Source of the DNA: Candidatus Paceibacter sp.
GTDB lineage: Bacteria > Patescibacteriota > Patescibacteriia > Magasanikbacterales > UBA922
DNA: 64,000 nucleotides
NCBI GenBank assembly: GCA_020725175.1
Contig: DYFM01000004.1
Coordinates: forward strand, 20,015 to 84,014
Direction: 5' to 3'
Of the stretch, positions 32,869-64,000 are shown piece by piece (the stretch's first letter is position 1; every line of letters begins with the position of its first letter). Made by a program: the position numbers and the translations under genes. The notes under the pieces were generated by a model. That model saw nothing but the letters and a program-made list of their open reading frames with translations, was not told the origin of the DNA and searched no databases.

Positions 32869-33067
32869 AAGGTAGAGATGATTGATCGAAATAACGAAAT
32901 AAAGAAATAGCGAAATTTTGCAATAAAGAATGGTGTACGATTTATTTCTTCATTTCTTTGTTTCGTTATTTCGAAAAACAAATATCCGTAACTTCGTATT
33001 ATCCGTAATCCGTAAGGCTAATAAAAAGCAGACCAGAAAACCGGCCTGCTTGTGAAGATGTACATCG

Positions 33068-39039: not shown

Positions 39040-39207
39040 ATGGCAATTCGGTGGATCCACAACGGTGGCTGGGATCCGCACCCGGAGCCCATTGAGGTTT
39101 CGGATGAGGAGGAGAAGAAGGTGAACGAGCAGCCGGCTGAGGACGCTCAGTCTGCTCCCACGTCGTCTCCCGACGACTGGGACGACTTCACCTGCTTCTT
39201 ATCCTAG
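39040..39207 (+). CDS. GC-rich (about 60% GC, GC3-biased) small acidic ORF, 55 aa (MAIRWIHNGGWDPHPEPIEVSDEEEKKVNEQPAEDAQSAPTSSPDDWDDFTCFLS)
   Basis: AGGAG Shine-Dalgarno 8 nt upstream of ATG; strong codon-third-position G/C bias unlike host genes; followed by 13-bp GC hairpin 39215-39245; below 60-aa cutoff of the ORF track. Confidence 0.45.
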   Translation: MAIRWIHNGGWDPHPEPIEVSDEEEKKVNEQPAEDAQSAPTSSPDDWDDFTCFLS

Positions 39208-39308
39208 TCATCTAGGCCGAGTGCTCAACATCTGAGCGCTCGGCCACCATCATTGCTTGTCATTATTGATAAAATACGCTATTCTACAGCTAACTAATCA
39301 AATTTTTT

Positions 39309-40490: not shown

Positions 40491-40690
40491 GCATACTCGG
40501 CATAATCTTGCGTGATATTTACAAAAAATGTTTATTACCAAAAATTATACGGTGTAAGATCAAGAGGGTTATTTGCACTTTTGTATTTCAATAAAAAAGC
40601 TGGGGTGTATCAATCCACCCGTGGCGGACAGGTTGCTCTGCTGCTTCTATCAAATAGGAACTTATTTCTTCGCAATTTTTCCGAAATAAT

Positions 40691-40726
40691 GTTCCGTTCC
40701 GCCCCTCGCGAGGGGCGGAACGGAAC
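40691..40726. promoter_or_regulatory. 36-bp perfect palindrome GTTCCGTTCCGCCCCTCG|CGAGGGGCGGAACGGAAC upstream of the 1275-aa hydrolase gene
   Basis: perfect 18-bp arms, no following T-tract; GC-rich within AT-rich IGR. Confidence 0.5.
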
Positions 40727-40785
40727 ATCTTTCGGGGAATTGCGTCAGAAAATGTTCGGCAGTGGCTGAATAGTATCTAAAGCAA

Positions 40786-49400: not shown

Positions 49401-52400
49401 CGGATCATTTAGTGGTGCAGGTTCTATCTCGGCGGATGGTGGTGATGGTGGGGGTGGTAGTGCTTCCTATGATGGTGGAGGAGGCGGTGGGGGCCGTATT
49501 GCCATTGTTCCTCTTGAAGGATCTCTATCATACACAGGTACAATTACCGTAGATGCAGGTGTTGGTCCGGACGCAGCACAAGATGGTGGTACAGGTACAA
49601 TTTATATTTTACCGAACTCTTCTTTTACTCTTGATGCTTCATATACATCGGCTGCTTGGCCAGGTACAATTTCAGGTACTTCAACCGACCATGATGTGAG
49701 TGTTGCGCAAGTCGATCTCAAGATTCAACGTTTTTCTGATAGTTATTACTGGAACGGTTCAGACTGGACAGCGAGTGAAACCTGGGTGACCTCAACCGGT
49801 ACGAGTACCTGGAGTTATAGTTTTTCGGGTGGTAATATGACTGATGGTACCTATACCGTCACTTCAAGAGCAACGGATAGTGATGGTGAGGTGGAAGCAG
49901 TATTGACTAGTGATAGCTTTACATTTTCTTCCATAGCCAGTGCTCCTCCTGTTGCCGGCGTTCCTGCTTACGCTTCTCAAGCGAGTGATGGTTCCGGTTA
50001 TGTCACAATTACAGCCGAAGTCTCAGACCCAAATTTTGATTCTCTTAAACTTCGAGTTGATTATTCCGATAATGGAGGTATCAATTGGTATGATCCGGAT
50101 TTGGTGAGTGTTAGCGCGTCGGTAGGTACGAATCCGGATCTAGATGATGCTAATGTGTATCAAATTGGAACAGTTAGTAATATCTCTACGGCCTCGAGTA
50201 ATACACTGTCAATTGTGTGGAATACCAAGTCAGCGTCAAATGGGAATGGGGCAATTGCCGGTCGCCAGACTGATATAATGGTTCGTGTTCTTCCAAATGA
50301 TATTATCGGTGAAGGAGATGGAACCTATGCGACTTCTACAGCATTTACGGTAGACAATTCGGCCCCGAGTGGTCCGGGAACTGCCTCTGCCTCATTTTCC
50401 GGCTTAAATGCTTCTATTTTTTGGACTGCAGTGACTGAAGATGAGTTTAGTCGATATGAAATATGGTATGGAACAAGCCAGAGTGATGTAGAAGGGAGGA
50501 CCGGCGCGGCACAACCATACACGACAAGTTCTGATCCTAATCTTTCGAGTACTTCAACCATAAACGTGACTATTTCAAGCTTGTCTCTTGGGCAAATTTA
50601 CTATTTTCAAGTTTTTGCTTTTGATGCTTATGGAAATTATAGTACGTCTACTGTAGTTTCAGGGACGGTGCCTGGCACCCCGCCTACGGTTTCCACACCA
50701 ACCCTTACACAACAATTGTCTGATGGGACGGGTTATATAACATTTACTACTCAAGTTCATGATACTGATACCGAAGATCTTTCGCTTCGAGTTGAATTTT
50801 CCGAAGATGGGAGCGCCTGGCGGAAGGCATATATTGTTACTTCATCGGTCAATTACGGTACCTCTACTATTTTTAATGTAAATACAAATCAAATCAGTGT
50901 TGATCGTTTGAGGGCCAATAATGGCTCTTTGTATTCCGATCTGGTCGCGCATTATGATTTTGATACAGATACCTCGACACTTGCTGATATTACTGGAAAT
51001 GGGTATAACGGTTTTTGGAGTACCGGTGCTGCTTCGCTTACCATCGGTAGATATGACAGTGCCGGGGATTTTGGTGCTCAATATGTACAAGTTAATACTC
51101 CAATATTAAATGACCCGCCTTTTTCTGTTTGTTTGTGGGCCAAACCAGACTCTCTTTCGCCAAGTTCTAATGATTATATTATTGCAAATGGCGCCCATAC
51201 TTCAGCAAAGGGTTTTAGTTTGTATTACAATACAAGTGGATGGAATTGGGTAGTCAAAAATATTTCATACAGCAAAACTCAGGTATTGAGCGCTTCTTCA
51301 GGGTGGAGTTTTTTATGTGGAACTTGGGATGGCACAGATACTGCTGGTGCAGTAAAATTTTATATAAATGGATCAGAAAATTCTACTACTGCAGTTGGTG
51401 GAGGAAGTAGTGTGAGTCAAGATTTAAGAATTGGAGAAGCAAGTGATGCTACAGGATATAGATTTGAAGGCTTAATTGATGAAATTTCAATATTTAATCG
51501 TATCCTTTCGTCTGACGATGTGCTCGAGTTAATGAATGCTCCGTATCCTTCAGGTTCAACCACTACACTCACCATTGTTTGGGATCCCACCTCTGCCTCC
51601 AATGAAGGTGGTGCTCTCACCGGTGAACAAAGTGACATTCAAGTTCGAGTGCGAGCGAACGACAGCTTGCAAAATGGGGAGTACGTAACTTCATCGGAAT
51701 TTAGCGTGGATGTGCAGGCGCCGACCGGCTTAGCAAATCTTGCCGTTACCGCTACTAGTACCAATGGCACGGTGGATCTCTCTTGGAGTGTAACAAGTGA
51801 TACCAATTTCAACCGTTATGAAATTTGGTACGGCTCAAGCAGTTCTGATGTGTCTTCTCGCTCCGGATCAGCCACTCGTTGGACGACCAGTTCTGATAGC
51901 AATCTCTCTAGCGGGGCTACTACCAGTTCTACTCTTACCGGTCTCCCTGGCGGTACCTTGTACTATAGTGTGTTTGCTATTGATGATTATGGAAATACGG
52001 CCACCACGACACAAGTGTCAGCGACTATTGTGCGAGATTTTGTGTCTACTCAAACTGGCAACTGGAATGTAGGTACCACTTGGGGCGGAGCATGTTCTTC
52101 TTCGTGTACTGCCGGAACCGATTTCCCAACCTCTACTGACACCGTGGTAGTTACCAGTACTCATGTGGTTACTATTCCGGCCTCAACCAGTGCCAGCTTC
52201 AATAGTCTTAATATCCGTGGTACTGCCACGGTAAAAATGGTGGGAAACATTGGTACCGGTACGGATATTACCATCGAAAACGGGGCGACATTACAACAAG
52301 AAAATACCTCTCTGCAAACAATTTCCGGAACACTTACCGTGGAGAATGGGGGAACCTTTACACATACTGCCCAAACCGATACATCTTCAAGTGGTGGCTG

Positions 52401-55400
52401 GACTACTCTTTCAAACATTCATTTTTCTGCGGATACAATTCTCATTAATTCTGGAGGGGCGATTACCGCCTCGCAAAAAGGATTTGCCGGAAGTCCTGCG
52501 GCTACAAACGCTTCCGATCTTGCAGCGCAAGGGTATGGTCCGGCCGGAGGATATAAAGCATCCGGGGGAGCGTCTCATGCTGGAACAGGAGGAGCTTCTT
52601 CTTGGAGCGGGGGCGCACAAAATACTACTTATTGTACAAAAACCCTTCCTGCTACGATGGGTTCCGGAGGGTCAGCAGCCCAAGGCACCAGCCCAAATGG
52701 TGATGGTGGAGATGGAGGTGGCTTGATTCAATTATATGCAAATCAAATAACAGTAACTGGTTCAATTTTATCTTTGGGAGGTGATGGAACCGCGGGGTCA
52801 GCTTCCGGTTCAGGGGGTGGTTCTGGTGGAGGAGTATTTGTTTCTACAACAGTCATCAGTGGTTCAGGTACTATTTCTGTCAATGGAGGAAATGGCTACA
52901 GTTATGGAAACTTTAATGGTGGTGGTGGAGGGGCTGGGTGTGTATCCATTATCGGTACAGAAGGGTCACTCTCCGGTTTTAGTGGATCAATCAATAAAAC
53001 CGGGGGTGTGGGGCCTGGTGCCGCTGGTGATGGTGGGGCAGGTACCCTCTACATCCGTCCCGACTCATCAATCACCAGTCTCACCACGAGTTCATACACA
53101 AACTTTTCTTGGTCGGGCACTATCTCCGGTACGTCAACTGATCATGATGATTCTGTTTCAAATGTTCACCTGAGAATTCAGCGAGGCAGTGACTCTCAAT
53201 ACTGGGACGGCAGTACCTGGACGGCGAGTGAAACTTGGGTTACCAGTACCGGAAACACATCGTGGAGTTATGATATCGCGGCCGGAAATTTTACTGATGG
53301 AGTGTCCTACACCATATCATCACGCGCGACCGATTCTGAGTCGGAAGTGGAAAGTGTATATGATACCGCCACTTTTAGTTTCTCAACCGAAGCCAACACA
53401 GCTCCGACCGCTACGGCTCTGAGTGTTTCACAAATTGCTTCTTCCACTGCCAGAGGAATAGTGTATGCCACTACCACGGTTTCGGATTCAAACTTGCAAG
53501 ACACCAGTCTTTACATTGATTACTCGCTTGACAATGGAGTGAATTGGACTTCTTCTACCATTGATGTCTTCAGTATTTCCGGACAAACAAATGGTTACAG
53601 TACCTCGACCGGTCAAATAAGTGGGATCGATTCTTCGGCTGGAGAAAAAACCGTTACCTTTATCTGGTATGCTTACACTGATGCCGGAGCGATTGACATC
53701 TCTTCCGCTCAGCTCAGAGTTACCCCAAACGATGGTACCGTAAACGGCAGTATCCAAACCTCGGCTTCCTTCAATCTCGACACCAATCCACCATCCGGTC
53801 TCGGCTCTTTCACTGTTTCAAGTTACACCTCTGAGCAAGTTCACCTCACTTGGGCGTCTACCACTGATACCAACTTTGATCATTACGAAATCTGGTATGG
53901 TACCAACCAAAATGATGTTCAAAATAGACAAAATACCGCCATCGAATGGGATACGACTGATGATGCTGATCTTGCTATCGCCGGTACCGCCTCGACTACC
54001 ATCACCGGGCTTACTCCTGACACGTACTATTTCAAAATCTTTGCAATTGATAGCTACTACAACGAATCTACTGTCGCCGACATCAATACCACCAACTCAA
54101 ACACGGCACCGACTTCAACCATTTCTGTCCAACCATCCCAAACCACCAACGGCACACAAACAATTTCGTTCACGGCCACCATTCAAGATACCGACGCCAC
54201 GCAAACGAGCATGATCGTGGAACATTCCACTGACGGATCTAGTTGGACTTCTTCTACTATTCTTTCTGTTACCCCGGACTTTGGTTCTGTCACCACATCC
54301 ATCGGACAGATCACCTTAATTGATACCGATCTAGCAGACAACAACACCGTCTCGCTTGCCGTGACTCTGTCTGCTAGTGTCAATTTTCCTAATACCAGCG
54401 ATGATACTGTCTACATCCGCCTTACTCCTCAAGATTCATACGCCAACGGATCAAGTCTCACTAGTTCCGCATTCATTGTCGACACTATCAACCCTACGAC
54501 ACCGGGTTCATTTACGGTTTCAACTTCAACGACATCAACAATTACATTTACATACGGCAGTGCTTCAACTGAGGATCATTTTAGCCAATACAAAGTATAT
54601 TACACCCAAGCAAGTAGTGGGGTTACCATCAACGATACCGAGATAAGCAGTTCTACGGTATCGGCGCTTGGCTCGCGAACTTTCAACGGCGAAACTACCT
54701 TTACTCTTGCGAGTCTTTCTCCAAACCTTCCTTATACCATTACCATCAAGGCTTTTGATAGCTACGGAAATGTTTCCAGTCTAGCAACCGAAACAACCGC
54801 CTATACCAACCCAACCATTCCAATCAGTCTGGCGGTATCTTCTCTCAACGAAACCACGCTGCAGCTTTCTTGGAATGCAAATTCCAATCCATCCGGATCA
54901 ATCTATTACCTTGCCTACAGTGACAATACCTTTATTGCCACCACTACCGCGACCAGTACCAATGTCACCATTGAAACTCCGGGACAAGAATATACCTTTA
55001 AAGTACGAACACAATACGCCAATTCCACAACGACGTATTCTGATTATTCTGCTACTGCAAGCGGGTCGACTACTATCAATCCTCCAAACGCTCCAACCGG
55101 AGTAACACCAGCAAGTGTATCAACATCCACCCTTACGCTTTCATGGACAGATACCAATTCCTACGAAGATAATTATTTTGTATACCTTGATACGACGGAA
55201 GGGGAGAGTGATACGCTGGTTACCACTACAGCATCAAACGTTACTTCAACTGCTATCTCGGGACTAACTCCAAATACCACTTACTACTTCACTGTTGTCG
55301 CTTCCAACACGGCCGGTACTGCAACATCTACTCAATCTAGCACAACAACAATTTCACTGTCACCTGATGCTCCGACAGATCTTACGGTAACAAACATTCA

Positions 55401-58400
55401 ATCAACCTCACTTACATTGAGTTGGACGGATAACACCAGTGGTACCAACGCGGAAGATAATTTTATTGTGAAGTATGGGACCAGTACCGGATCATATTCC
55501 ACCACTGCCACGACGACTCAAGCCAATACCACCTCAAGCACAGTTACCGGTCTTACTCCCAACACCGAGTATTTCTTTGTTGTCCTGGCAACGAACGAAG
55601 CTGGTACCGCTACCTCAACCGAATTTTCAACCACCACACTTGATTCCGCTCCTACCGCTCCAACCAATCTTACTGTTTCAAATAAATCAACTTCAACACT
55701 TACCCTCTCATGGGATGACAATGCCAACAATGAAACATCGCAGACCGTTCTTTACGATACGGACAACAATTCATTCAACAATAGTTCATCTCAATCTGCC
55801 AACACTACTTCAACATCAATTACCGGTCTTACTCCTAATACTCAATACTATTTCAAAGTGAGAAGTACCAACGCCGGTGGTTCAAACGATTCAACAGTCA
55901 CTACTACCTACACCACTGCCAACGCACCGACTATTTTGTCTATTACTGCTGTTTCCTACGATCGTATTTCTCTGAGCTGGAACGCAAACACGAACCCAAG
56001 TGGTACGGTATATGAAGTGACTCGAGTTAATGGTGAAGATATACTACTCGCCACTACAACCGAAACCAGCTACACGGTTACCGGCCTTGACGTCGAAACC
56101 ACCTACACCTTCAAAGTTCGGGCGATCAATGCGGATGGCTCTGGGTACTCCAATTATTCTGACCCCGAGGCAGAGGCAACAACGAGTATCGATCCTCCTA
56201 CCGCCGCCTCAGGACTTAGCTTTAGTTCTGTTGCGAGTAGTTCCCTGGTTATTTCCTGGACAGACAATTCCACTGGTTCAGCCGAAGAAACCTCTTTTAG
56301 TGTCAAGTATGGTACTGCTTCTGGAACCTATTCAAACACTGCTACCACCACGGCTGCCAATGTTACCTCAAGTACTGTCACCGGTCTATCTCCAAGTACG
56401 ACGTACTACTTCGTGGTCATCGCAAGCAACAGTTCCGGTTCAACCACTTCTACCCAGGCAAGTACTTCAACCGTTATTTACGCGCCAGCCGCACCAAGTG
56501 GGGTAACGATTCTTTCTACCACGGCGGACACCCTCAGTCTTTCGTGGACAGACAATAGTAGTGGTGATACCCAAGAAGCGGACTTTTTGATTGAATATGG
56601 TACTGATGGTGTGAGTTTCCCAAGTAGTACAACCGTCGCCGCCAACGAAACAACGGCGCTCCTGACGAGTCTTACTCCAAACTCGACCTATTATGTTCGA
56701 GTAACTGCGAGAAACAGTGCCGGATCGGCAACCAGTGATAGTGTTTCATCAGCCACCAGTATTGGACTTCCGCCAAAACCAAGTAGTCTCACCTTTAGCG
56801 CTGTCTCTACCTCTTCTCTGACGATCACATGGACCGACAATTCTTCCGGAGATTATCAAGAAGCATCTTTCACGGTTGCCTACACTACCGACGGCTCTAC
56901 CTATACCACCGCCACTACCACTGCTCCAGACACCACGAGCGCGAGTGTGGATAGTCTCACTCCAAACACCACCTATGTTTTCAAAGTTACCGCGACCAAT
57001 GCCAGTGGTTCGGGTATTTCTGATACCGAAACAACTACCACACTTCCTTTGGCTCCGGCAGCAGCGAGTGGGCTGAGTGTGGCCAGTACCACTCCAAGTT
57101 CAGTTACACTCACCTGGACTGACAATACGGGAAGCACTGATAATGAAGAATACTTTACTATTGAATATGGAACTGACGGAGTCTCCTTCAACAATTCTCT
57201 CATTGCTATTAAAGACACCACTTCGCGAACGGTGAGTGGGCTTTCTCCAAGTACTACCTACTACTTTAGAATTGCCGCTAATAACAGTGCCGGTTCAAGC
57301 ACCTCAGACGTGGTATCAGCTACTACCAATGTGGGGGCTCCAATGGTACCGGGAAGTTTGACAGCGGTTTCAGTCACTACCTCAACCGTTTCACTGACTT
57401 GGGTAGACAACAGTAGTGGAGAAAATGAAGAAGATAATTTTATTGTGAAGTACGGAACAGACGGTGTAAACTATGGCACTACTGCCACCACCACCGGTCA
57501 ACACGTGCAGGCCGCGACCGTTACAGGTTTAACACCAGGTCTCCGCTATTACTTCATCGTCGAAGCACGTAATACCACTGATGCGGCGGTGTCCCAAGAT
57601 GTTATCGTTACCATGTTGCCAAATGCTCCTGGTGCGCCAACTCTCGAAAGCGCGAGTGCTACGTCGATTCAATTGAGTTTTGCTGCCAATGGGAACAATG
57701 CTGAGGTGGATTATGCTATTTATAATGAAACAACTGGTAAGTACATCAATACAGTTAGCAATGAACCAAGTCTCTCGGCTGGATGGCAAACAGCCGCACA
57801 GTGGGGAAGTCCGATCACTGTTTCCGGTCTAGCGCCAAACACGAGTCATGTGTTCAAAGTTCGCGCACGGAATGCCAACGGAGACTTTTCGGAATATTCA
57901 GCAACGTCTAGTCTCTATACGCTTGCGGCGACCCCTACCCGCCTGAGTGCCAGTGTGGCGTCTGCTACGAGCATTACGGTTTCTTGGAATGCCAATAGTA
58001 ATCCTAGTGGCACGGTGTATGAAATCTATGACTACACCAATACTACCGTTCTCACAACCACCACGGAAACCAGTTATTCTCTTACCGGACTCGGGATCAA
58101 TACCGGGTATCGGTTTCAAGTCCGGGCCGAACATGCCGGAAGCCCGGGGACTTATTCCGATTATACTTCTCCACCAAGCACTCTGCTATACACCCTTGCC
58201 ACCGCGCCAAACCCGGCTGTCGTGAGTAGTGTCTCCACTTCATCGTTTACTATCCTCTTTAGTGATAGTGATACCAATCCAAGTCACACCAAGTACGCGA
58301 TTCGAATTGGTGATAGTCAATATCTTCAAGCTGATGGATCATTGAGTGCTAGCACGCTTTACCAAACCGAGACGGTGTGGAATTCTCCAAGTTACGTGGG

Positions 58401-60411
58401 TCTCTCTCCAAATACGCAGTACTCGATCACTCTACGCGCGCAAAACGGCAACAATATTCCAACCGCTTTTTCTGATACGACAAGTACGTATACGTTAGCG
58501 GAAATCCCAACTAGCTTGGCCACCTCTTCGGTCGCACAAACCAGTATCACACTCACCTGGAACGGCGGTTCTAATCCGGGGACAACGGTCTATACCCTTG
58601 CCACCGGTTTGGGGACTACGATTGCGACGACAACTGCCGAAACGTACACCTATTCCTCATTGACCTGTAACACAGAATACACCTTCAAAGTGAAAGCAAG
58701 TAATGCCGATGGTATTGATACCGATTGGTCTGATACTCTTACCCAAACCACCAGTGCCTGTGACGCTGAAGATCCGGGAGATGGGGGAGGGGATGATGGG
58801 GATAATGGTGGAAATGATGTCGGAAACAATGAACAACCCTCCAGTGGAGCGGCTCCACCACCATCTGTCTCAATTCCTCTGCCAATTTCACTATCTGTCA
58901 ATGGACAAACCGTCAATATCGATACCAGTGAACAAACCACGACCGGTGGTGATTTATTGGTAGAAGCAGATATCATTGAAGCCAAACTCAAACCAAAGAC
59001 TGGCTTCAAATTGCCAATTCAAAATCAAACGCACACGGTTCAACTGATTGACATTGCCGACAAAACTGCGATTCTTGAAGTTCGCTCCAAACCGGTTCGG
59101 GTGGCCTTGAAACAAAAACAAGAAGCAGTGGTTGATACCGATGAGGATCAGATTCCGGATCTCCATATTTATCTCAAAGACATCTCACTCTTTCAGTCCA
59201 AGGCAACTGCGGTTGTTACGAATCTTCACAAGTTGCCGATTTCTCTCAACAACAATCTTTCTGAAACAATGAGTAGAGACATTCTTGTTCGACTGATTGA
59301 GTTGCCAAAAGTAAGTCATGTCGCACTTTCTGAAGACAAAAACTTTACCGGTGTTTCGTACGTGCCATTTGAGCGTTTGCGAGGGTTTACGTTATCAAGT
59401 GGTTATGGCAAAAAAACCGTTTATGTCAAATTTCGCACGTCTCAAGGCGCAGAGGCTGTCACTGCCGCAAGCATCACTCTCGTTAAAGGTACAGAACTGG
59501 ATCAGCGTACCGCATGTCCGCTCACTCCACAATTAGCGTACAAGACAGCAAACCACCCGGCCGTCTACTACATCACAGAAACCTGCACCAAACGTCCATT
59601 TAGTCGCTCGGATGTGTTCTTTACCTATTTCACCAACTGGAACCAGGTTAAGATTATCGATGACAAAACACTTCAATCTATACCAACAGATACCCTTGGT
59701 TTTATGCCATGGGGACCACTCTATGATCCGCAGTACGGGGCTTTGGTGAAAACTGTTACTGATCCAAAAGTCTATCTTCTATTGGGAAATGAAAAATATT
59801 GGATTACTGATGAGAAGGTCTTTAATGCTCTCAACTACCAATGGAACTGGATTGAAGATGTGGATCAACGTCTCCTTGATGCATATGTTATTGGCTCAGA
59901 AATCAACTATACCGATCGTCATCCGAACTATACTCTCATCAAGTACCAACATAGTCCAAAGGTTTATCGATTAGAACCCTCATCCGAGGGGGCACAAATC
60001 AAACGTCATATCAGCAATGAAGCAGCCTTCATCTCACTCAATTTCCGTTTTGATAGAATTGTCACGATTCCGGAGACAGAAACATATCCTGACGGAGAAC
60101 CGTTGCAGGGAACAAGCGGGTCGTTGCAAATGGTTTATACTTCGAAACTACGAAATAGCGAAACAGCGAAACAATCGCAGAATTCTTCTTCATACCAATT
60201 TACCAAAACGTTGCAACTAGGGGATTATGATCCGGACGTGATTGAACTTCAAACCAAACTCAAAGAACTTGGATACTTCCATCATCTCCACATTACCGAC
60301 TACTTTGGTCCAGTTACTGAAGAAGCTGTGAAAGCCTTTCAACGAGATCGCGGTCTTGATCCAATTGGAATTGTTGGTCCGGGGACGAGAGGTGTGCTGA
60401 ATGATTTGTAA
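46402..60411 (+). CDS. giant (4669 aa) cell-surface protein: signal anchor, three Gly-rich beta-helix-like modules, LamG/ConA-like lectin domain, more than 25 fibronectin-III-like repeats, C-terminal peptidoglycan-binding domain
   Basis: uninterrupted 14-kb ORF; repeated 'TLTHTDNTTAQTH..VTVSGSI..GGxGGxG..GGGRIAIV' modules; LamG-like block about 50880-51540; many 'SWT/WTDN..YxV' FN3-like units; C-terminal 'LQLGDYDPDVIELQTKLKELGYF..VTEEAVKAFQRDRGL' PG_binding_1 motif. Confidence 0.85.
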   Translation: MVIMGKIIKRHWHKTLLLVLLVSVAGFFGLFGSRYGFKTDVVKADSRTITCNGTSRTLTVGAYTDAAGTTFESGSDLILDQGSGACTFTLNGTVSLASLNVGSGVTLTHSDNTTAQTYTLVLNVTGDVTVSGSIDVSGKGFSPGYGSGAGMNYSAGNMSGAAYGGYGGSGGWSSSYTKAVSYGSALAPAEIGSGGGNGYAATTGGDGGGHVKITATNLTVSGSILANGNSGTISGGYGGSGGSGGSVYLLVSSTVNLTGATLTANGGNGANGTVNNTSADGGAGGGGRIAIVNYASYSAPTTLSVYGGTAYLNAQDGGAGSIYIKENGTNGTLTYDNNSSADSIGSRITDSANYTIDELVLKNGTSLTIPSGVTINSSQSTFNNTGTNTLTLVGIFNLTNTEFTFPSNLTFSASGNASIGTSITSSTIAGTVTFTYGMTQNLSSLSTVRVASGGTLFLSSYTTSNALTIDTLTVEGTLTHTDNTTAQTHIINVVASDVTVSGSINVNARGFAGGATGSHGSGNVNGYGIGYSNGNSGGAAYGGYGGAGGYNGGANGKATAYGDALAPTDLGSGGGGGYNSAGGDGGGTIKITATNLTVTGSIVANGETGKTTGTYGGGGGSGGSIYLVVSSTVDFTGATITANGGNGGDGSGNDTSANAGAGGGGRIAIVNYSSYTAPTTLTAYGGIGPTNASDGGAGSIYIKQTGTNGILTYDNAVSVDGTGSIITASANYTIDELVLKNGAALTLPSGATITSNQTTFNNIGTPNPTFVISGTFNPGNTSFIFPSSFTTTFGSTGVLSTVTSSTLQGTAGWTYGFTHSLSNLTIDSGSTVTLSSFTTSNALSIATIIINGTLTHTDNTTAQTHVINLSATDLTIGASGSISGNAKGYTGSSAGTVGNGTGGGTYAGGAGGASHGGVGGAGTNSSQKAAYGSASLPVTIGSGGGGGSGWGGGDGGGYVKVLVSNLTLAGSISVNGAGGTSNGSYSGGGGSGGGVYLNISGSFSGAGSISADGGDGGGGSASYDGGGGGGGRIAIVPLEGSLSYTGTITVDAGVGPDAAQDGGTGTIYILPNSSFTLDASYTSAAWPGTISGTSTDHDVSVAQVDLKIQRFSDSYYWNGSDWTASETWVTSTGTSTWSYSFSGGNMTDGTYTVTSRATDSDGEVEAVLTSDSFTFSSIASAPPVAGVPAYASQASDGSGYVTITAEVSDPNFDSLKLRVDYSDNGGINWYDPDLVSVSASVGTNPDLDDANVYQIGTVSNISTASSNTLSIVWNTKSASNGNGAIAGRQTDIMVRVLPNDIIGEGDGTYATSTAFTVDNSAPSGPGTASASFSGLNASIFWTAVTEDEFSRYEIWYGTSQSDVEGRTGAAQPYTTSSDPNLSSTSTINVTISSLSLGQIYYFQVFAFDAYGNYSTSTVVSGTVPGTPPTVSTPTLTQQLSDGTGYITFTTQVHDTDTEDLSLRVEFSEDGSAWRKAYIVTSSVNYGTSTIFNVNTNQISVDRLRANNGSLYSDLVAHYDFDTDTSTLADITGNGYNGFWSTGAASLTIGRYDSAGDFGAQYVQVNTPILNDPPFSVCLWAKPDSLSPSSNDYIIANGAHTSAKGFSLYYNTSGWNWVVKNISYSKTQVLSASSGWSFLCGTWDGTDTAGAVKFYINGSENSTTAVGGGSSVSQDLRIGEASDATGYRFEGLIDEISIFNRILSSDDVLELMNAPYPSGSTTTLTIVWDPTSASNEGGALTGEQSDIQVRVRANDSLQNGEYVTSSEFSVDVQAPTGLANLAVTATSTNGTVDLSWSVTSDTNFNRYEIWYGSSSSDVSSRSGSATRWTTSSDSNLSSGATTSSTLTGLPGGTLYYSVFAIDDYGNTATTTQVSATIVRDFVSTQTGNWNVGTTWGGACSSSCTAGTDFPTSTDTVVVTSTHVVTIPASTSASFNSLNIRGTATVKMVGNIGTGTDITIENGATLQQENTSLQTISGTLTVENGGTFTHTAQTDTSSSGGWTTLSNIHFSADTILINSGGAITASQKGFAGSPAATNASDLAAQGYGPAGGYKASGGASHAGTGGASSWSGGAQNTTYCTKTLPATMGSGGSAAQGTSPNGDGGDGGGLIQLYANQITVTGSILSLGGDGTAGSASGSGGGSGGGVFVSTTVISGSGTISVNGGNGYSYGNFNGGGGGAGCVSIIGTEGSLSGFSGSINKTGGVGPGAAGDGGAGTLYIRPDSSITSLTTSSYTNFSWSGTISGTSTDHDDSVSNVHLRIQRGSDSQYWDGSTWTASETWVTSTGNTSWSYDIAAGNFTDGVSYTISSRATDSESEVESVYDTATFSFSTEANTAPTATALSVSQIASSTARGIVYATTTVSDSNLQDTSLYIDYSLDNGVNWTSSTIDVFSISGQTNGYSTSTGQISGIDSSAGEKTVTFIWYAYTDAGAIDISSAQLRVTPNDGTVNGSIQTSASFNLDTNPPSGLGSFTVSSYTSEQVHLTWASTTDTNFDHYEIWYGTNQNDVQNRQNTAIEWDTTDDADLAIAGTASTTITGLTPDTYYFKIFAIDSYYNESTVADINTTNSNTAPTSTISVQPSQTTNGTQTISFTATIQDTDATQTSMIVEHSTDGSSWTSSTILSVTPDFGSVTTSIGQITLIDTDLADNNTVSLAVTLSASVNFPNTSDDTVYIRLTPQDSYANGSSLTSSAFIVDTINPTTPGSFTVSTSTTSTITFTYGSASTEDHFSQYKVYYTQASSGVTINDTEISSSTVSALGSRTFNGETTFTLASLSPNLPYTITIKAFDSYGNVSSLATETTAYTNPTIPISLAVSSLNETTLQLSWNANSNPSGSIYYLAYSDNTFIATTTATSTNVTIETPGQEYTFKVRTQYANSTTTYSDYSATASGSTTINPPNAPTGVTPASVSTSTLTLSWTDTNSYEDNYFVYLDTTEGESDTLVTTTASNVTSTAISGLTPNTTYYFTVVASNTAGTATSTQSSTTTISLSPDAPTDLTVTNIQSTSLTLSWTDNTSGTNAEDNFIVKYGTSTGSYSTTATTTQANTTSSTVTGLTPNTEYFFVVLATNEAGTATSTEFSTTTLDSAPTAPTNLTVSNKSTSTLTLSWDDNANNETSQTVLYDTDNNSFNNSSSQSANTTSTSITGLTPNTQYYFKVRSTNAGGSNDSTVTTTYTTANAPTILSITAVSYDRISLSWNANTNPSGTVYEVTRVNGEDILLATTTETSYTVTGLDVETTYTFKVRAINADGSGYSNYSDPEAEATTSIDPPTAASGLSFSSVASSSLVISWTDNSTGSAEETSFSVKYGTASGTYSNTATTTAANVTSSTVTGLSPSTTYYFVVIASNSSGSTTSTQASTSTVIYAPAAPSGVTILSTTADTLSLSWTDNSSGDTQEADFLIEYGTDGVSFPSSTTVAANETTALLTSLTPNSTYYVRVTARNSAGSATSDSVSSATSIGLPPKPSSLTFSAVSTSSLTITWTDNSSGDYQEASFTVAYTTDGSTYTTATTTAPDTTSASVDSLTPNTTYVFKVTATNASGSGISDTETTTTLPLAPAAASGLSVASTTPSSVTLTWTDNTGSTDNEEYFTIEYGTDGVSFNNSLIAIKDTTSRTVSGLSPSTTYYFRIAANNSAGSSTSDVVSATTNVGAPMVPGSLTAVSVTTSTVSLTWVDNSSGENEEDNFIVKYGTDGVNYGTTATTTGQHVQAATVTGLTPGLRYYFIVEARNTTDAAVSQDVIVTMLPNAPGAPTLESASATSIQLSFAANGNNAEVDYAIYNETTGKYINTVSNEPSLSAGWQTAAQWGSPITVSGLAPNTSHVFKVRARNANGDFSEYSATSSLYTLAATPTRLSASVASATSITVSWNANSNPSGTVYEIYDYTNTTVLTTTTETSYSLTGLGINTGYRFQVRAEHAGSPGTYSDYTSPPSTLLYTLATAPNPAVVSSVSTSSFTILFSDSDTNPSHTKYAIRIGDSQYLQADGSLSASTLYQTETVWNSPSYVGLSPNTQYSITLRAQNGNNIPTAFSDTTSTYTLAEIPTSLATSSVAQTSITLTWNGGSNPGTTVYTLATGLGTTIATTTAETYTYSSLTCNTEYTFKVKASNADGIDTDWSDTLTQTTSACDAEDPGDGGGDDGDNGGNDVGNNEQPSSGAAPPPSVSIPLPISLSVNGQTVNIDTSEQTTTGGDLLVEADIIEAKLKPKTGFKLPIQNQTHTVQLIDIADKTAILEVRSKPVRVALKQKQEAVVDTDEDQIPDLHIYLKDISLFQSKATAVVTNLHKLPISLNNNLSETMSRDILVRLIELPKVSHVALSEDKNFTGVSYVPFERLRGFTLSSGYGKKTVYVKFRTSQGAEAVTAASITLVKGTELDQRTACPLTPQLAYKTANHPAVYYITETCTKRPFSRSDVFFTYFTNWNQVKIIDDKTLQSIPTDTLGFMPWGPLYDPQYGALVKTVTDPKVYLLLGNEKYWITDEKVFNALNYQWNWIEDVDQRLLDAYVIGSEINYTDRHPNYTLIKYQHSPKVYRLEPSSEGAQIKRHISNEAAFISLNFRFDRIVTIPETETYPDGEPLQGTSGSLQMVYTSKLRNSETAKQSQNSSSYQFTKTLQLGDYDPDVIELQTKLKELGYFHHLHITDYFGPVTEEAVKAFQRDRGLDPIGIVGPGTRGVLNDL

Positions 60412-60842: not shown

Positions 60843-61913
60843 ATGTTCAACAATTTCTCTGGCACCATCATCATTACCGACCCAAACGCGGTGATTCTCT
60901 ATGCCAATCCGTCGGTAGAAGAACGGACCGGTTTTTCGGTTGCGCAAGCAGTAGGAAAACGACCGGGAGAATTGTGGGGTGGACACATGCTGCGAGAGTT
61001 TTATGATCGGATGTGGCAGACGATACGTGAGGAAAAACGCCCGTTTGTTGGTGAAGTAAAAAATAAGCGCACAGACGGTACGTTTCGGCGTATGGGGCTC
61101 CATATCGCACCGATTATCAATCGTCGAAATGAGGCAGAATACTATATCGCTATTCATCCGGCAGTGACAACTGACGTGGAAGAACGACAATTTCAACAGG
61201 AGTTTGCTGAGGTATTTGCACCATGGCATGTTTCTACTTCTTCGGAAACAATTGCTTGGTTGGCGCGTTGGACCAAAGGCGAAGCCAAATTGACGCTTGA
61301 CGAAGGAGGTGTACTCCACAAAACACATCTGGTTGATATGGTCTCCTTTTTTCGTACGGAACTCATCAACCCGATTGCCGAAAAGTTTCAAGAGCGAAAG
61401 GCTGATGCAGAATTGGTACGATTGGCACAAGAAAAACCAAGCAAGTTCCATTTGTTATATGAAAAGTATCAGGCATCAGTTGAACAGTATTTTTTGCGCC
61501 GGTTAGGAGGGGATGTTATGTTGGCGGAAGAGTGTACACAAGAAACGTTTATTCGTGCGTTTCGATTTTTACCGCAGTATCATATTACCAATGCTTCGTA
61601 CCAAACTTACCTTATGCGTATTGCTCACAATTTACTAGTAAGTCATTATCGCAAACAAGCTCCACTGTCTCTTGAAGAGCAAGAAGGAACATTGGTCAGC
61701 GAAGATAATTATGAGGGTATTTTTGACCAAGAAGAATTGCGACAATTATTAGAAACTGTTTCGGATGTTGAACGAGATATCTTAACGATGAAATACATTG
61801 ATGAATTATCTATTCGTGACATTGCCGTAACCCTCGGAAAAACAGAAAATGCCGTGAAACTTATGTTGTCGAGAACAAGGAAAAAATTGAGAAATAGGGA
61901 AATAACGAAATAG
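60843..61913 (+). CDS. PAS-domain fused to sigma-70/ECF-type sigma factor (sigma2 + sigma4 regions)
   Basis: N-terminal PAS fold 'IIITDPNAVILYANPSVEERTGFSVAQAVGKRPGELWGG'; sigma region 2 'YFLRRLGGDVMLAEECTQETFIRAFRFL'; sigma region 4 HTH 'ILTMKYIDELSIRDIAVTLGKTENAVKLMLSRTRKKL'; start set at Met 60843 downstream of promoter (track start 60759 overlaps promoter). Confidence 0.75.
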   Translation: MFNNFSGTIIITDPNAVILYANPSVEERTGFSVAQAVGKRPGELWGGHMLREFYDRMWQTIREEKRPFVGEVKNKRTDGTFRRMGLHIAPIINRRNEAEYYIAIHPAVTTDVEERQFQQEFAEVFAPWHVSTSSETIAWLARWTKGEAKLTLDEGGVLHKTHLVDMVSFFRTELINPIAEKFQERKADAELVRLAQEKPSKFHLLYEKYQASVEQYFLRRLGGDVMLAEECTQETFIRAFRFLPQYHITNASYQTYLMRIAHNLLVSHYRKQAPLSLEEQEGTLVSEDNYEGIFDQEELRQLLETVSDVERDILTMKYIDELSIRDIAVTLGKTENAVKLMLSRTRKKLRNREITK

Positions 61914-62215
61914 GGAAATAACGAAATGTGTTTCCCTCTATCAGGGGGACGCAAGGGGGTCGTTCAGAGGTAGAGTGTTTGGAACTTGGATAGTGCTTTT
62001 ATGTTAGCCCTTTGCTAGCTAACTAAGGAATAACAGACGACCCAAGGGGAGTGTGTTGGAATGTACAATACACACTAAATAATAACTTTAAACACAAAGA
62101 GAGAAAATAAATTGTCAAAAACAGTAGATCTGAACAGCTATGGTTGATTGAAATAGGTGAAAAATGTGATTTCTTAATCAGTAAAATAGCAAACGCCAGA
62201 TTTTCCCAAAAACAA

Positions 62216-62256
62216 AAAACCGTATCTGCAAGAACCAGTACGGTTTTTTTATTTCC
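62216..62256. terminator. bidirectional rho-independent terminator (A6-CCGTATCTG..CAGTACGG-T7)
   Basis: 8-bp stem with one bulge flanked by A and T tracts. Confidence 0.65.
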
Positions 62257-62317
62257 ACGTTTCGCCCTTCGGTAGGCTCAGGGCTCATCAGTCCCGATCA
62301 TCAATCGGAAGACGTGG
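62255..62317 (-). ncRNA. type III hammerhead self-cleaving ribozyme
   Basis: minus-strand RNA 5'-CCACGUC^UUCCGAUUGAUGAUCGGGA-CUGAUGA-GCCCUGAGCCUACCGAAGGGC-GAAA-CGUGG-3': open helix III (6 bp), closed helix I (7 bp, loop UGAUG), core CUGAUGA, closed helix II (5 bp, 11-nt loop), GAAA, GUC cleavage triplet; all invariant core positions present. Confidence 0.8.
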
Positions 62318-62350
62318 TCCCCGGCGCGAGCGCTGGGGAGCACGCCGGGG

Positions 62351-62485
62351 CTAACGCATCAGGTGTCCGATGCATGAGCCCACCCCTCCCGCCACCGCCA
62401 GAGCAAACAGCTGCTCTGGCGTGTGGCCCAGGAACAGGCCCATGGCGGCGCAGGTCAGCGCCGCCACGATGTAGGACTCCGTCAT
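62351..62485 (-). CDS. GC-rich (about 66% GC) 44-aa hydrophobic two-helix peptide (MTESYIVAALTCAAMGLFLGHTPEQLFALAVAGGVGSCIGHLMR)
   Basis: strong GC3 bias (ACG GAG TCC TAC ATC GTG GCG GCG CTG ACC TGC GCC GCC ATG GGC CTG...) in a 38% GC genome; small-residue Gly/Ala zipper-like helices; followed by 8-bp GC hairpin, hammerhead and terminator; frame differs from track ORF 62301..62501. Confidence 0.45.
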   Translation of the reverse strand: MTESYIVAALTCAAMGLFLGHTPEQLFALAVAGGVGSCIGHLMR

Positions 62486-62813
62486 AAAAAAACCCCATCA
62501 AACACCTGCACCACGCAGATGTGAGGGGTCCTCCTACAAAAAAACTACCAGAGAGAGAGAGTTAAAAGTCAATAATAAATCGCTCTACAACCACCTTGTT
62601 CCTTGCCACTTACCTCTGACACCTTTTCCCTATTTCTGCGTTTATTAATATAGAGTACCCGCCCTGGGCGGAAAAAGTAAAACAACAAAACAATAAAACA
62701 ATAAAGCAATTTAGCAATGTGACAATATAACAATCAAACATTTTATACATTAGTTCAATTCAATGAGCCTTCGAAGCCTTGTAAGCTTCGGGGACCTCGT
62801 AAGCCTTTCAACT

Positions 62814-64000
62814 ATGCCTATCTACAAAATTCAAAAACGTAACGGCACTATCGTCAACTTTGAATTGAGTAAAATTGAACATGCGGTGCGGCAAGCAGCG
62901 AAGTCGGTCAATCAATTGGACGAGGGAATCCCTCCTACGGTAGCCAAGGAGGTGTTGGTTCAACTTGAAGATTTGTATCAAGACACAATTCCAACCGTAG
63001 AACAAGTGCAGGATGTGGTGGAGGAAGCATTGATCAAATTTGATTACGCGGAAATTGCCAAGGCATATATTTTGTATCGTCAAAAACGTAATGAAGTCCG
63101 TGAAGAAAAAAGTGTGGTGGTAGAAGTGGGAAAAACCATTGATGAATATCTTGGGCACCTAGATTGGCGCATTAACGAAAATGCAAATATTGGGTATTCT
63201 ATCGGGGGGTTGATTTTAAAAAATTCCGAAAAAATTGTCGCCAACTATTGGTTGAGTCACATTTATCCAAAGGCTGTAGGTGAAGCGCACCGAAACGGGG
63301 ATTACCACATTCATGATCTCGGTATGTTTACCGGGTACTGTGCCGGTTGGAGTCTGCGGGCACTTCTTGAAGAAGGATTCAATGGTGTGCAAGATAAAGT
63401 AGAGTCCGGCCCACCAAAGCATTTGAGTTCGGCCGTGGCACAAATGGTAAATTTTCTGGGTACCCTCCAAAATGAATGGGCAGGCGCACAAGCATTCTCC
63501 AGTTTTGACACGTATTTGGCACCCTATGTAAAAAAATACGAAATGGAACTTGAGCAAGAAATCGACGAACACGGGATGCAGTTTTTAACAGAAGAAGCGA
63601 AGCAGTTGTATATTGACGAAAAGACGTATCAGTATGTGTTTCAAAATATGCAGTCGTTTGTGTTCAACTTAAATATTCCATCTCGCTGGGGAACACAAAC
63701 ACCATTTACCAATATTACGCTTGACTTGCAATGTCCGGAAGATTTGAAAGATAAACGGTTGTTGCTTGGAGGAAAACCATTTGAGTTTACGTATGATCAA
63801 TTGCAAAAAGAAATGAACATGATCAACCGGGCGTATATTGAAGTGATGAGCCAAGGTGATTCCAAAGGACGTACGTTTACTTTTCCTAGTCCGACGTACG
63901 ACATTACCAAAGATTTTGATTGGGATAATCCAGCCTATGAGCCATTATTTGAAATGACGGCCAAATACGGTACCCCATACTTTCAAAATTTTGTGAACTC
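62814..64000 (+). CDS. nrdD: anaerobic ribonucleoside-triphosphate reductase (class III RNR), N-terminal part; runs off window
   Basis: N-terminal ATP-cone 'MPIYKIQKRNGTIVNFELSKIEHAVRQAAK', downstream class III RNR core ('FTFPSPTY'); no stop within window. Confidence 0.85.
   Translation, partial: MPIYKIQKRNGTIVNFELSKIEHAVRQAAKSVNQLDEGIPPTVAKEVLVQLEDLYQDTIPTVEQVQDVVEEALIKFDYAEIAKAYILYRQKRNEVREEKSVVVEVGKTIDEYLGHLDWRINENANIGYSIGGLILKNSEKIVANYWLSHIYPKAVGEAHRNGDYHIHDLGMFTGYCAGWSLRALLEEGFNGVQDKVESGPPKHLSSAVAQMVNFLGTLQNEWAGAQAFSSFDTYLAPYVKKYEMELEQEIDEHGMQFLTEEAKQLYIDEKTYQYVFQNMQSFVFNLNIPSRWGTQTPFTNITLDLQCPEDLKDKRLLLGGKPFEFTYDQLQKEMNMINRAYIEVMSQGDSKGRTFTFPSPTYDITKDFDWDNPAYEPLFEMTAKYGTPYFQNFVN

Follow-up and report, generated by a model that had tools for sequence, protein, structure and literature searches.

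Phage morons are autonomous promoter-gene-terminator units that have inserted between conserved genes, and their GC content often deviates. In type I toxin systems, such as hok/sok and the txpA/RatA-type pairs of B. subtilis that overlap at their 3' ends, 3' processing of the toxin mRNA precedes activity. Two other described systems are defined by RNA elements. In prophages, hammerhead ribozymes stand on either side of one gene or of a short block of genes (Perreault et al. 2011, PMC3088659), and in phage T4 a hairpin brings the SD closer to the AUG, from 22 nt to 5 in gene 38 and from 27 nt to 11 in gene 25 (reviewed in PMC3014915).

The window, meaning the whole 64-kb stretch of DNA that was analyzed, contains an intergenic cassette that resembles each of these systems in part. 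It is a very GC-rich, tightly folded minus-strand unit of ~330 nt in a low-GC Patescibacteria genome (43% GC), small enough to synthesize. The strongest GC peak of the window lies at 62213–62563, where GC reaches 0.727 against a mean of 0.426 (sd 0.058; 150-nt windows); in 100-nt windows GC is 0.61–0.70 over 62250–62499 versus 0.29–0.45 in the flanks. This bears out the first-pass annotation, which had called a compositionally foreign, GC-rich cassette on this strand. Its elements follow in the order promoter-like stretch, SD-like sequence, hairpin with U7, open reading frame, GC clamp, hammerhead and terminator-like hairpin. The cassette is real and unusual. It is also an orphan and, read from sequence, a putative transcription unit whose function can be inferred at most. 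We tentatively favor, at a probability of about 0.4, a self-contained mini-gene that was gained by horizontal transfer and encodes a membrane peptide of two helices; it would be comparable to a phage moron and lies within ~700 nt of lineage-specific DNA. The likeness to morons is in the stand-alone unit with promoter-like and terminator elements, the deviant composition, and the position between genes that are adjacent in relatives. Unlike a moron, the cassette is not in a prophage but inside the terminator hairpin of a cellular operon-like gene pair, and it has a ribozyme aboard.

That pair is PAS-sigma and nrdD; the other neighboring genes are DHO_dh, nrdG, znuABC and fur, and annotation of the neighborhood revealed no phage genes. 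In distant CPR relatives the PAS-sigma-nrdD spacer measures 86, 101 and 117 nt and holds one terminator, versus 900 nt here, a comparison of architecture only, since the nearest PAS-sigma homolog is just 44% identical and close relatives provide no exact empty site. The arms of the ancestral terminator now stand ~700 nt apart. The left arm (61891..61918, plus strand) carries GAAATAGGGAAA, twice within a 16-nt tandem duplication, and the right arm (62618..62636, plus strand) is GACACCTTTTCCCTATTTC, followed by a conserved GYGTTTAWTA stretch upstream of nrdD. In the right-arm region, GACACCTTTT is invariant in the alignment with L034, L035 and L037. The ~700 nt between the arms (61919..62617), delimited by spacer comparison with the relatives, is lineage-specific, and the cassette makes up its right two-thirds. 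Short spacers in relatives, set against the long spacer and split arms here, indicate an insertion, so that the synteny backs the horizontal acquisition proposed earlier. An inverted repeat of 12–22 nt, GAAATAGGGAAA/TTTCCCTATTTC (61891–61918/62625–62646), was considered as a pair of transposon ends and rejected, as it equals the ancestral terminator arms of the relatives. A MITE- or IS-type element was rejected on the same ground, and also because the cassette is single-copy: no further REP- or MITE-like copies were found in the window or in a second assembly of the region, the 132.8-kb contig L001 (sample 3300029893).

Cassette and junctions are identical in the window, in L001 and in a third assembly, L002 (sample 3300029892). 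The three represent one population (99.8–99.97% identity), so this identity is weak evidence against an inert relic. The conserved PAS-sigma-nrdD adjacency in relatives, the split terminator and the unchanged cassette in three assemblies together argue for insertion of foreign DNA.

The cassette begins with a promoter-like stretch (62542..62572, minus strand), which we read as a -35 element TTGACT (62572–62567), a 19-nt spacer that includes (CT)6 (62561–62550), and a -10-like TAGTTT (62547–62542). The (CT)n tract differs among assemblies, with one CT more in L001, where the spacer is 21 nt. A consensus promoter scan did not flag the stretch because its spacer exceeds 18 nt. Next comes an SD-like AGGAGG (62530..62535, minus strand) at the 5' base of a hairpin with a U7 tract (62486..62528, minus strand; MFE -27.3 kcal/mol, z -5.8). 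The hairpin itself has a CCCC..GGGG base (62528–62493) whose pairs form with P=1.0 in the full-transcript model, and U7 (62492–62486) directly abuts the ATG. Linear distance from AGGAGG to AUG is 44 nt; the effective distance is 8 nt (A plus U7) once the hairpin forms. A stable hairpin between SD and AUG is what T4 genes 38 and 25 have, and the putative shortening here, from 44 to ~8 nt, would make a similar split ribosome-binding site. The differences are that the hairpin here is followed by U7, as in a terminator, that the AGGAGG is itself predicted to pair, weakly, with the U7 tract (P ~0.99), and that host genes seem not to rely on SDs. Only 1 of 32 host genes is preceded by an SD, AGGAGG occurs at 27 sites in 128 kb (both strands), and SD use may be absent from the host altogether. 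Hairpin and U7 together could be a split-RBS bridge, a 5' stabilizer or an intrinsic terminator, whose anatomy they resemble, 0 nt before the AUG.

The 44-codon frame (ATG 62485..TAG 62351, minus strand; 62351..62485) translates to MTESYIVAALTCAAMGLFLGHTPEQLFALAVAGGVGSCIGHLMR, the very peptide quoted in the first-pass annotation. GC at its three codon positions is.64/.50/.84, and the third value compares with.33–.46 in 15 correctly framed host genes; this GC3, with the strongest GC peak of the window, argues for foreign origin. The alternative 66-aa frame proposed by the six-frame track (62501..62301) has a GC3 of ~.55 and so lacks the signal, as had been noted. The difference among codon phases was matched by 8 of 5000 dinucleotide-preserving shuffles, and it has the phase of the ATG..TAG frame and the order GC3 > GC1 > GC2, which leaves the 44-codon frame with the best codon statistics, as claimed. 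GGN/GCN-type repeats inside stems could be a partial source of this periodicity. A relation of stems to codon phase was tried as its cause and dropped, the phases being mixed and uninformative. The peptide has one Arg and one Pro despite ~70% GC, while other frames give Arg/Pro/Gly-rich products. It has two hydrophobic segments (GRAVY 0.98), and the AF2 model (pLDDT 75) predicts helices at 2–18 and 23–43, in agreement with the two helices of the earlier description. In-phase periodicity, low Arg and Pro content, two predicted helices and AGGAGG at the hairpin base all favor the coding reading.

The GC clamp hairpin (62319..62350, minus strand; -21.2 kcal/mol) begins right after the stop codon, with an 8-bp stem of CCCCGGCG (62350–62343) and CGCCGGGG (62326–62319). 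It is followed by a type III hammerhead (62254..62318, minus strand), a full-model match to Rfam RF00008 with all core bases; clamp and ribozyme are both located where they had been reported. Stem III has 6 bp (62317–62312/62260–62255), stem I has 8 bp (62310–62303/62299–62292) and stem II has 5 bp (62284–62280/62268–62264). The conserved catalytic core is complete, with CUGAUGA at 62291–62285, GAAA at 62263–62260 and the U62312-A62260 pair. From the cleavage triplet GUC (62313–62311), which is of the NUH type, the cut is predicted after C62311, between GUC and U, 8 nt 3' of the clamp. At 34.4 bits the match falls short of the gathering score, 48.5 (E 2e-5 in a 1-kb search, 1.3e-3 in the whole window), with a cmscan alignment to model positions 1–54; several other retrieved hammerheads in plausible contexts score 36–45 bits. 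For the isolated 73-nt RNA the MFE structure is the canonical three-way junction, with loops closing stems I and II and with stem III open. The full-transcript model gives stem III a P of ~0 and puts the active fold +4.3 kcal/mol above the MFE, a cost to be read in light of the model covering neither tertiary contacts nor co-transcriptional folding. Scans of the 64-kb window and of L001 turned up this ribozyme and no other.

A bidirectional terminator-like hairpin (62209..62250, both strands) closes the unit, with an A-run, a CCGUA..UACGG stem and a U-run (z -3.6), consistent with the terminator that the earlier description had predicted. From its sequence, it would stop both the minus-strand unit and plus-strand transcripts coming from PAS-sigma. 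U tracts thus follow GC-rich stems at 62528–62486 (U7) and at 62250–62209 (U6GU5), while a consensus scanner called 0 terminator-like sites over 61800–62900; the bulge or internal loop in both stems may be the reason that it missed them.

Hammerheads elsewhere provide a context for this arrangement. The high-GC contigs L029 and L032 have three type III hammerheads each, between genes, and one of those in L029 lies 2 nt past the end of a hydrophobic ORF of 25 aa. Hammerheads in L030/L044, a viral contig, lie just upstream of genes. With these, and with the published prophage cases (PMC3088659), the cassette shares the type III topology, the canonical core, the location at a gene boundary and the high-GC context, and by analogy the presumed role would be the same, that of cutting a transcript into gene-length RNA. 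The differences are substantial. Prophage blocks are bracketed by at least two hammerheads, whereas here there is a single one (in the window and L001), followed by a terminator and no next gene. Phage and integrase genes are absent nearby, searches against phage DNA, plasmid DNA and PHROGs gave no match, the surrounding chromosome belongs to Patescibacteria and has 43% GC, and a 32-nt GC clamp separates stop codon and ribozyme. Besides the stem III bases fixed in the search pattern, the retrieved hammerheads have only the universal core in common with this one. On the mini-gene reading, the cassette most likely derives from a high-GC mobile element, out of an operon punctuated by hammerheads.

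For the mini-gene we propose the following course of expression. Transcription from TTGACT-(CT)n-TAGTTT would start near 62536 and give an RNA whose 5' end presents AGGAGG, a stable hairpin and U7-AUG, the hairpin placing the SD ~8 nt from the start codon in the manner of T4 genes 38 and 25; it may also shield the 5' end or attenuate transcription. The 44-codon frame would then yield a hydrophobic membrane peptide with two helices, as modeled. The mRNA is packed in GC hairpins and would probably be long-lived and poorly translated. Hammerhead cutting after C62311 would remove the ribozyme body and the terminator, leaving ~225 nt of RNA. Its 3' end, 8 nt past the GC clamp, would bear a 2',3'-cyclic phosphate and should withstand 3' exonucleases. 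The A-run, hairpin and U-run at 62250–62209 would stop transcription in both directions.

The complete hammerhead core and correct topology favor the mini-gene reading. So does a parallel elsewhere in the window, a second orphan micro-gene at 39040–39207 that is GC3-rich and highly structured, with a clear SD and ORF; the two islands have no sequence similarity to each other. The reading is weakened by the orphan status of the peptide, by the hammerhead's sub-gathering score and the stem III and active-fold values of the full-transcript model, and by the terminator-like hairpin and U7 at the AUG, which would block expression. It is further weakened by the promoter spacer of 19 or 21 nt and the negative scan, by a host possibly without SD use, by the single hammerhead with no phage genes nearby, and by the possible contribution of repeats to the periodicity.

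Evidence from RNA structure bears on a noncoding alternative, which we regard as a serious rival, though less probable than the mini-gene: a hyper-stable RNA of ~225 nt with five GC hairpins, its 3' end set by the hammerhead and its ORF incidental. Fold z on the cassette minus strand is -9.4 over 341 nt and -6.2 over 177 nt, placing these windows 4th and 6th of 751 in the window-wide structure scan, which also found other very strong intergenic hairpins in this genome. The ORF stretch forms three near-perfect hairpins and is therefore not a simple unstructured coding region; its structure exceeds that of synonymous permutations (z -3.8 to -6.6), and so exceeds the demands of peptide plus codon usage. 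G-U pairing is strand-specific. The ORF folds at -84.7 kcal/mol on the minus strand versus -67.0 on the plus strand, with 9 versus 1 G-U pairs, and by stretch the minus strand is 15–33 kcal/mol more stable (9–22 versus 1–2 G-U pairs). A noncoding RNA would explain this as well as an AUG buried right behind a hairpin with a U7 tract and a peptide without homologs in the databases searched. Moreover, five overlapping ORFs of 33–66 codons share the same 200 nt, so an open frame is by itself no evidence, and frames of ~40 codons are expected by chance at 70% GC because stop codons are rare there. What such an RNA would leave unexplained is the three-base periodicity in correct phase and order, a peptide composition unlike the products of the other frames, and an AGGAGG placed for 8-nt effective spacing. 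No Rfam family matches the GC-rich body, the hammerhead being the only match at gathering and at E<=10, and the second GC-rich structured island of the window has its clear SD plus ORF. The mini-gene reading, too, counts the fold z, the structure beyond synonymous permutation and the strand-specific G-U pairs in its favor, as RNA-level features of the same strand.

Relatives of the cassette were sought widely. The 44-aa peptide found no homolog in 5.8 billion clusters by word-seeded search or in 1.84 billion representatives by full HMMER, and tblastn-confirmed scans of GTDB genomes, IMG/VR and JGI metagenome contigs returned nothing or the query alone. It had no tblastn match in phages or plasmids and no match in Pfam, PHROGs or PADLOC. 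The cassette had no DNA similarity to phages or plasmids, and a 45-nt motif had no match in viral contigs. Pattern searches anchored on the hammerhead did bring up genuine type III hammerheads sharing its stem III, but in none was the body related. A literature search for metadata on the source samples gave no result. No donor emerged from these searches.

These negative results also suit an inert relic, in which a short piece of an operon punctuated by hammerheads, from a high-GC phage or mobile element, was caught in the terminator and is now silent and free of selection. Uptake of foreign DNA is commonly attributed to CPR bacteria, and a relic would account for an un-ameliorated composition, an orphan, single-copy sequence, terminator-like hairpins pointing into the cassette from both sides, and the similar ORF-hammerhead junctions of high-GC contigs. 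We think it unlikely, given that the ATG-to-TAG frame and the hammerhead core are intact and the hairpins perfect, and that the layout is that of a complete unit, from promoter-like stretch through terminator. Identity of the cassette in three assemblies speaks against a relic as well, weakly, as they are one population.

A bolder extension, which we hold to be improbable, would make the cassette and the island at 39040–39207 members of a class, so far undescribed, of high-GC mini-genes that an episymbiotic CPR bacterium captured from its high-GC host or that host's phages. The cassette would then be a ribozyme-gated membrane toxin, with the hammerhead replacing nuclease trimming in the maturation or stabilization of a type I toxin-like mRNA and the variable (CT)n spacer acting as a phase switch.

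Taken alone, a type I toxin-like module has a slim chance at best. Here a small membrane toxin would be translated from the processed mRNA only, a hammerhead cut would do the 3' trimming that exonucleases do for hok, and the antitoxin would be a plus-strand RNA that overlaps or converges with the toxin mRNA. The peptide does have the features of such toxins, being hydrophobic, shorter than 60 aa and endowed with two predicted helices that could be transmembrane, and by analogy a compact, stable, translationally masked mRNA with a 3' processing step is what these systems use. In the full-transcript model the SD and AUG region are masked, and codons 4–5 of the ORF are predicted to pair over long range with the 3' strand of hammerhead stem III, but that helix is 4 bp. 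A plus-strand promoter-like site at 62056–62083 could launch an RNA that converges on the shared terminator; it is, however, a chance-level site (2 promoter-like sites found in total versus 1.5 expected), and no plus-strand promoter-like site lies inside the cassette. Unlike in type I systems, no antitoxin RNA was identified, and there is no similarity to known toxin families (Pfam, PHROGs, PADLOC). In the literature searched we found neither ribozyme processing of a natural type I system nor any natural link between hammerheads and type I toxins.

The toxin or stability cassette suggested by the first-pass annotation accordingly found no backing in the form of a homolog, antitoxin or second copy, and its satellite or mobile RNA element gained no support either, with one ribozyme and no repeat copy found. 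A viroid-like or circular origin was rejected too, with no second ribozyme in the window and with L024 and L028, which combine a hammerhead and a hairpin ribozyme, unrelated. Assembly chimerism, the joining of high-GC reads into a low-GC contig, has a negligible probability: composition does switch abruptly at both edges, but the same cassette and junctions recur in three assemblies that differ by SNPs/indels within 1.5 kb of them, and both junctions fall in sensible hairpin and U-tract elements. Overall, the annotation was right about a foreign minus-strand cassette, its best frame, the two helices and acquisition; of the explanations it offered, the chimera is rejected, and toxin and satellite gained no support. 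Three features had escaped it: the exceptionally stable, strand-specific RNA, the SD at the hairpin base and the split ancestral terminator.

That the cassette is a singleton, with no copy or relative found, limits its value. A hammerhead-made 3' end with a protective hairpin is a design used by synthetic biologists, and in the literature searched we found no description of such an end for natural cellular genes, nor any link of hammerheads with Patescibacteria or the candidate phyla radiation. If expressed, the cassette would be a natural bacterial mRNA with a hammerhead-made 3' end that finishes in a protective GC hairpin. Set against a clean "empty site" in relatives, the locus shows that a reduced CPR genome gained tiny high-GC genes very recently, with their composition still un-ameliorated.

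Base composition sets the cassette apart from its surroundings. GC content across 62250–62499 is 0.61–0.70 in 100-nt windows against 0.29–0.45 around it, and in 150-nt windows the cassette reaches 0.727, the highest value of the 64 kb (mean 0.426, sd 0.058), bearing out the GC island reported in the first-pass annotation. On the minus strand the unit reads as an SD-like AGGAGG (62535–62530), a strong 5′ hairpin (62528–62493), a U7 tract (62492–62486), an ORF of 44 codons from ATG to TAG (62485–62351), a GC clamp CCCCGGCG/CGCCGGGG (62350–62319), a type III hammerhead (62318–62254) and an A-run/hairpin/U-run (62250–62209). An assembly chimera had been offered as one explanation. The exact 44-aa peptide is encoded on two JGI metagenome contigs from the same population, L001 (132.8 kb, sample 3300029893) and L002 (sample 3300029892). 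The three assemblies differ by SNPs, a 6-nt indel and CT-repeat length at sites no further than 1.5 kb from the cassette, but cassette and junctions are identical in all three, which excludes a chimera for practical purposes.

The insertion site lies between a PAS-domain sigma factor gene and nrdD. Best outside matches to the sigma factor have 41–44% identity, those with names being annotated as Magasanikbacteria, Moraniibacteria and other Patescibacteria; nothing close was found among GTDB species representatives. In three distant relatives nrdD directly follows this gene, with spacers of 86, 101 and 117 nt, each containing one hairpin, AAAGGTGTC-loop-GACACCTTTT, then GYGTTTAWTA. The spacer here is 900 nt (61914–62813), with the terminator right arm and downstream motif intact at 62618–62660 and the outer left arm, GAAATAGGGAAA, at 61891–61918. 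Because the relatives' spacers hold the same hairpin, the inverted repeat is the ancestral terminator, now parted by ∼700 nt of lineage-specific sequence of which the cassette forms the right two-thirds. Its arms were considered as transposon ends and rejected on the same comparison. No part of the insert has a second copy in the window or L001, save a 45-nt motif. A tandem 16-nt duplication (GAAATAGGGAAATAAC twice, 61891–61921) spans the sigma factor stop codon at the left junction, and a degenerate third copy of the terminator left arm is at 62150–62170. Immediately upstream of the sigma factor gene is a giant 4669-aa ORF (46402–60411, plus strand) with repeated fn3 domains and PG_binding_1 (Pfam).

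The 45-nt motif, TTCCCyyTAyyAGGGGGACGCAAGGGG(G)TCGTTCAG, occurs in two copies of ∼85% identity, each shortly after a stop codon, where lineage-specific extra DNA starts. Copy 1 (61931–61975, plus strand) is 18 nt past the sigma factor stop codon; copy 2 (L001 7509–7469) is ∼50 nt past that of nrdD, beyond the window end. The motif had no Rfam match and no hit in viral contigs or the other loci compared, being found in this genome only; a recombination site and a novel RNA element are both conceivable. Also beyond the window end (L001 6160–7546), nrdD is separated from a 67-aa NRDD-domain gene by a gene for a 376-aa DHO_dh-family protein and a called ORF of 61 aa; in two relatives (L035, L036) the small NRDD gene directly follows nrdD. 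The DHO_dh DNA is another insertion into this operon-like cluster and begins at motif copy 2.

The unit is exceptionally strongly folded, with z-scores of −9.4 for 341 nt of it, −6.2 for ORF plus clamp and −5.8 for the 5′ hairpin. At −84.7 kcal/mol the ORF folds more stably than three sets of controls: z is −3.8 when synonymous codons are permuted (0.3% of permutations reach as low), −5.1 when they are resampled with GC3 matched, and −6.6 when codon order is shuffled; host-gene controls, using the test applied to a second GC-rich island (below), gave z from −2.3 to +1.7. The plus strand folds less well, at −67.0 kcal/mol for the ORF (1 G-U pair vs 9 on the minus strand) and −149.4 vs −182.9 kcal/mol for the whole unit. 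In a fold scan of the entire minus strand, cassette windows took ranks 4 and 6 of 751, with only three long intergenic palindromes above them. This predicted strand-specific structure points to an RNA made from the minus strand whose fold matters. The cassette is real, foreign-looking, inserted and structured strand-specifically.

Very long near-perfect hairpins occur at 40685–40735, 15783–15885 and 32888–32972, all intergenic by ORF coordinates, and at about 4010–4110, an ORF-free gap between listed ORFs; local fold z is −5 to −9. That at 32888–32972 has a GAAATAACGAAAT-type arm in common with the PAS-sigma/nrdD terminator. Together these hairpins may represent palindromic terminators or REP-like elements of one family.

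The 44-aa peptide quoted in the first-pass annotation was correct on translation, as was its statement that the competing 66-aa frame lacks the GC3 signal (∼.55 vs.84). GC at codon positions 1/2/3 of the 44-codon ORF is.64/.50/.84, with host GC3 at.33–.46 (n = 15 genes in correct frame). This periodicity, in correct phase and correct order, counts for coding; its phase contrast was matched by 8 of 5000 dinucleotide-preserving shuffles. Despite 70%-GC DNA the peptide contains a single Arg and a single Pro, whereas other frames yield Arg/Pro/Gly-rich products, and two hydrophobic helices are predicted. AGGAGG (27 sites in 128 kb) sits exactly at the 5′ hairpin base, giving an SD–AUG spacing of 8 nt with the hairpin folded, similar to the split RBS of T4 gene 38/25 (PMC3014915). 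An SD-like GGAG/GAGG/AGGA was found 4–20 nt upstream of the listed start in 1 of 32 long host ORFs, where starts were those of the longest ORF and some may be misplaced; the SD therefore looks like a donor trait. The host lineage appears to start translation largely without Shine-Dalgarno sequences, while both GC-rich micro-genes have one. Counted against coding were the five ORFs that overlap at the cassette, frames of such length being expected in GC-rich DNA; the terminator-like look of 5′ hairpin plus U7; and pairing of the SD with the U tract, predicted in a transcript model. Also against coding, no homologue of the peptide was found in any resource searched (protein clusters, GTDB, IMG/VR, JGI contigs, phages, plasmids, Pfam, PHROGs, PADLOC). 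On balance we consider the frame probably coding. A non-coding stable RNA would suit the strand-specific fold and the points counted against coding, and sits poorly with the codon periodicity; we judge it less likely than an acquired mini-gene but a serious rival.

The second GC peak of the window, 39040–39207 (plus strand), holds a 55-codon ORF (MAIRWIHNGGWDPHPEPIEVSDEEEKKVNEQPAEDAQSAPTSSPDDWDDFTCFLS) with an acidic product, GC 0.60 and GC3.77. A proper SD, AAGGAGA, precedes it, and a GC hairpin (39217–39247) lies past its stop codon. Its RNA folds with z −6.3 and exceeds synonymous permutations (z −3.3). The ORF is an orphan in a 5.8-billion-cluster database, and the island has no sequence similarity to the hammerhead cassette. 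It counts as evidence for coding in the cassette.

The hammerhead claimed earlier stands, with all invariant core bases, a GUC cleavage triplet at 62313–62311 and alignment to the full length of Rfam RF00008, though its 34.4 bits (E 2e-5 in 1 kb, 1.3e-3 in the window) fall below the gathering score of 48.5. Activity is plausible, not assured, because the canonical junction is the MFE of the isolated 73-nt RNA but modelling of the full transcript puts the active fold 4.3 kcal/mol above the MFE, and there a 4-bp long-range helix involving ORF codons 4–5 competes with stem III. Rfam gave no other ribozyme match in the window, L001 or three syntenic loci of relatives.

Searching with the hammerhead core plus the cassette's stem III yielded 14 metagenome and 7 viral loci; Rfam confirmed type III hammerheads in most of the 14. 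Two related contigs of 67–68% GC, L029 (454–1152) and L032 (350–2499), have three such hammerheads each, placed between the genes of an operon that includes two small ORFs (28 aa, zinc-ribbon-like; 25 aa, hydrophobic) and genes for an AAA_5 ATPase and a VWA protein; in L029 the 25-aa ORF stops 2 nt ahead of a hammerhead. In one viral element (L030 and L044), hammerheads lie just upstream of SD-plus-gene units. These layouts agree with prophages in which multiple hammerheads flank single genes, for which processing into gene-length mRNAs was proposed (Perreault et al. 2011, PMC3088659). The cassette resembles one gene-plus-hammerhead junction removed from a high-GC mobile element; unlike the prophage blocks, it has neither several hammerheads nor a prophage neighbourhood, and its body is shared by none of the 14 metagenome and 7 viral loci. 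An inert relic would fit the cassette's orphan status and the similar junctions of high-GC contigs, and fits less well with the intact frame, hammerhead core and hairpins; we count it too as a serious rival, with somewhat less credence than a non-coding RNA. Two further metagenome contigs, L024 (848–916/1154–1207) and L028 (1113–1168/1400–1490), combine a type III hammerhead with a Hairpin-meta1 ribozyme (RF04190, 57–58 bits) on the opposite strand, as is characteristic of circular RNAs of the viroid-like or ambivirus-like kind; these contigs are unrelated to the cassette.

We consider it most likely, with a probability of about 0.42, that the cassette was acquired as a mini-gene whose mRNA is trimmed by the ribozyme, a function inferred from the observed anatomy. 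A promoter-like stretch consists of a −35-like TTGACT, 19 nt and a −10-like TAGTTT, with a (CT)6 tract at 62550–62561; the tract is (CT)7 in L001, varying within the population, and its length could modulate promoter spacing. From this stretch RNA would start near the SD, and the 5′ hairpin would bridge SD to AUG. The peptide would be poorly translated from a message packed with hairpins. Hammerhead cleavage after C62311 would leave the GC clamp and 8 further nt, ending in a cyclic phosphate, as a protected 3′ end. The putative bidirectional terminator (62250–62209) would insulate both strands and keep PAS-sigma and nrdD transcription apart, the former job of the destroyed ancestral terminator. 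A type I-toxin-like role, which the hydrophobic helices might recall, is possible but unsupported, and we think it very improbable. A hammerhead at a gene boundary is already a known arrangement, and the cassette is a variant of it: a singleton without a comparative handle, yet small enough for direct testing.
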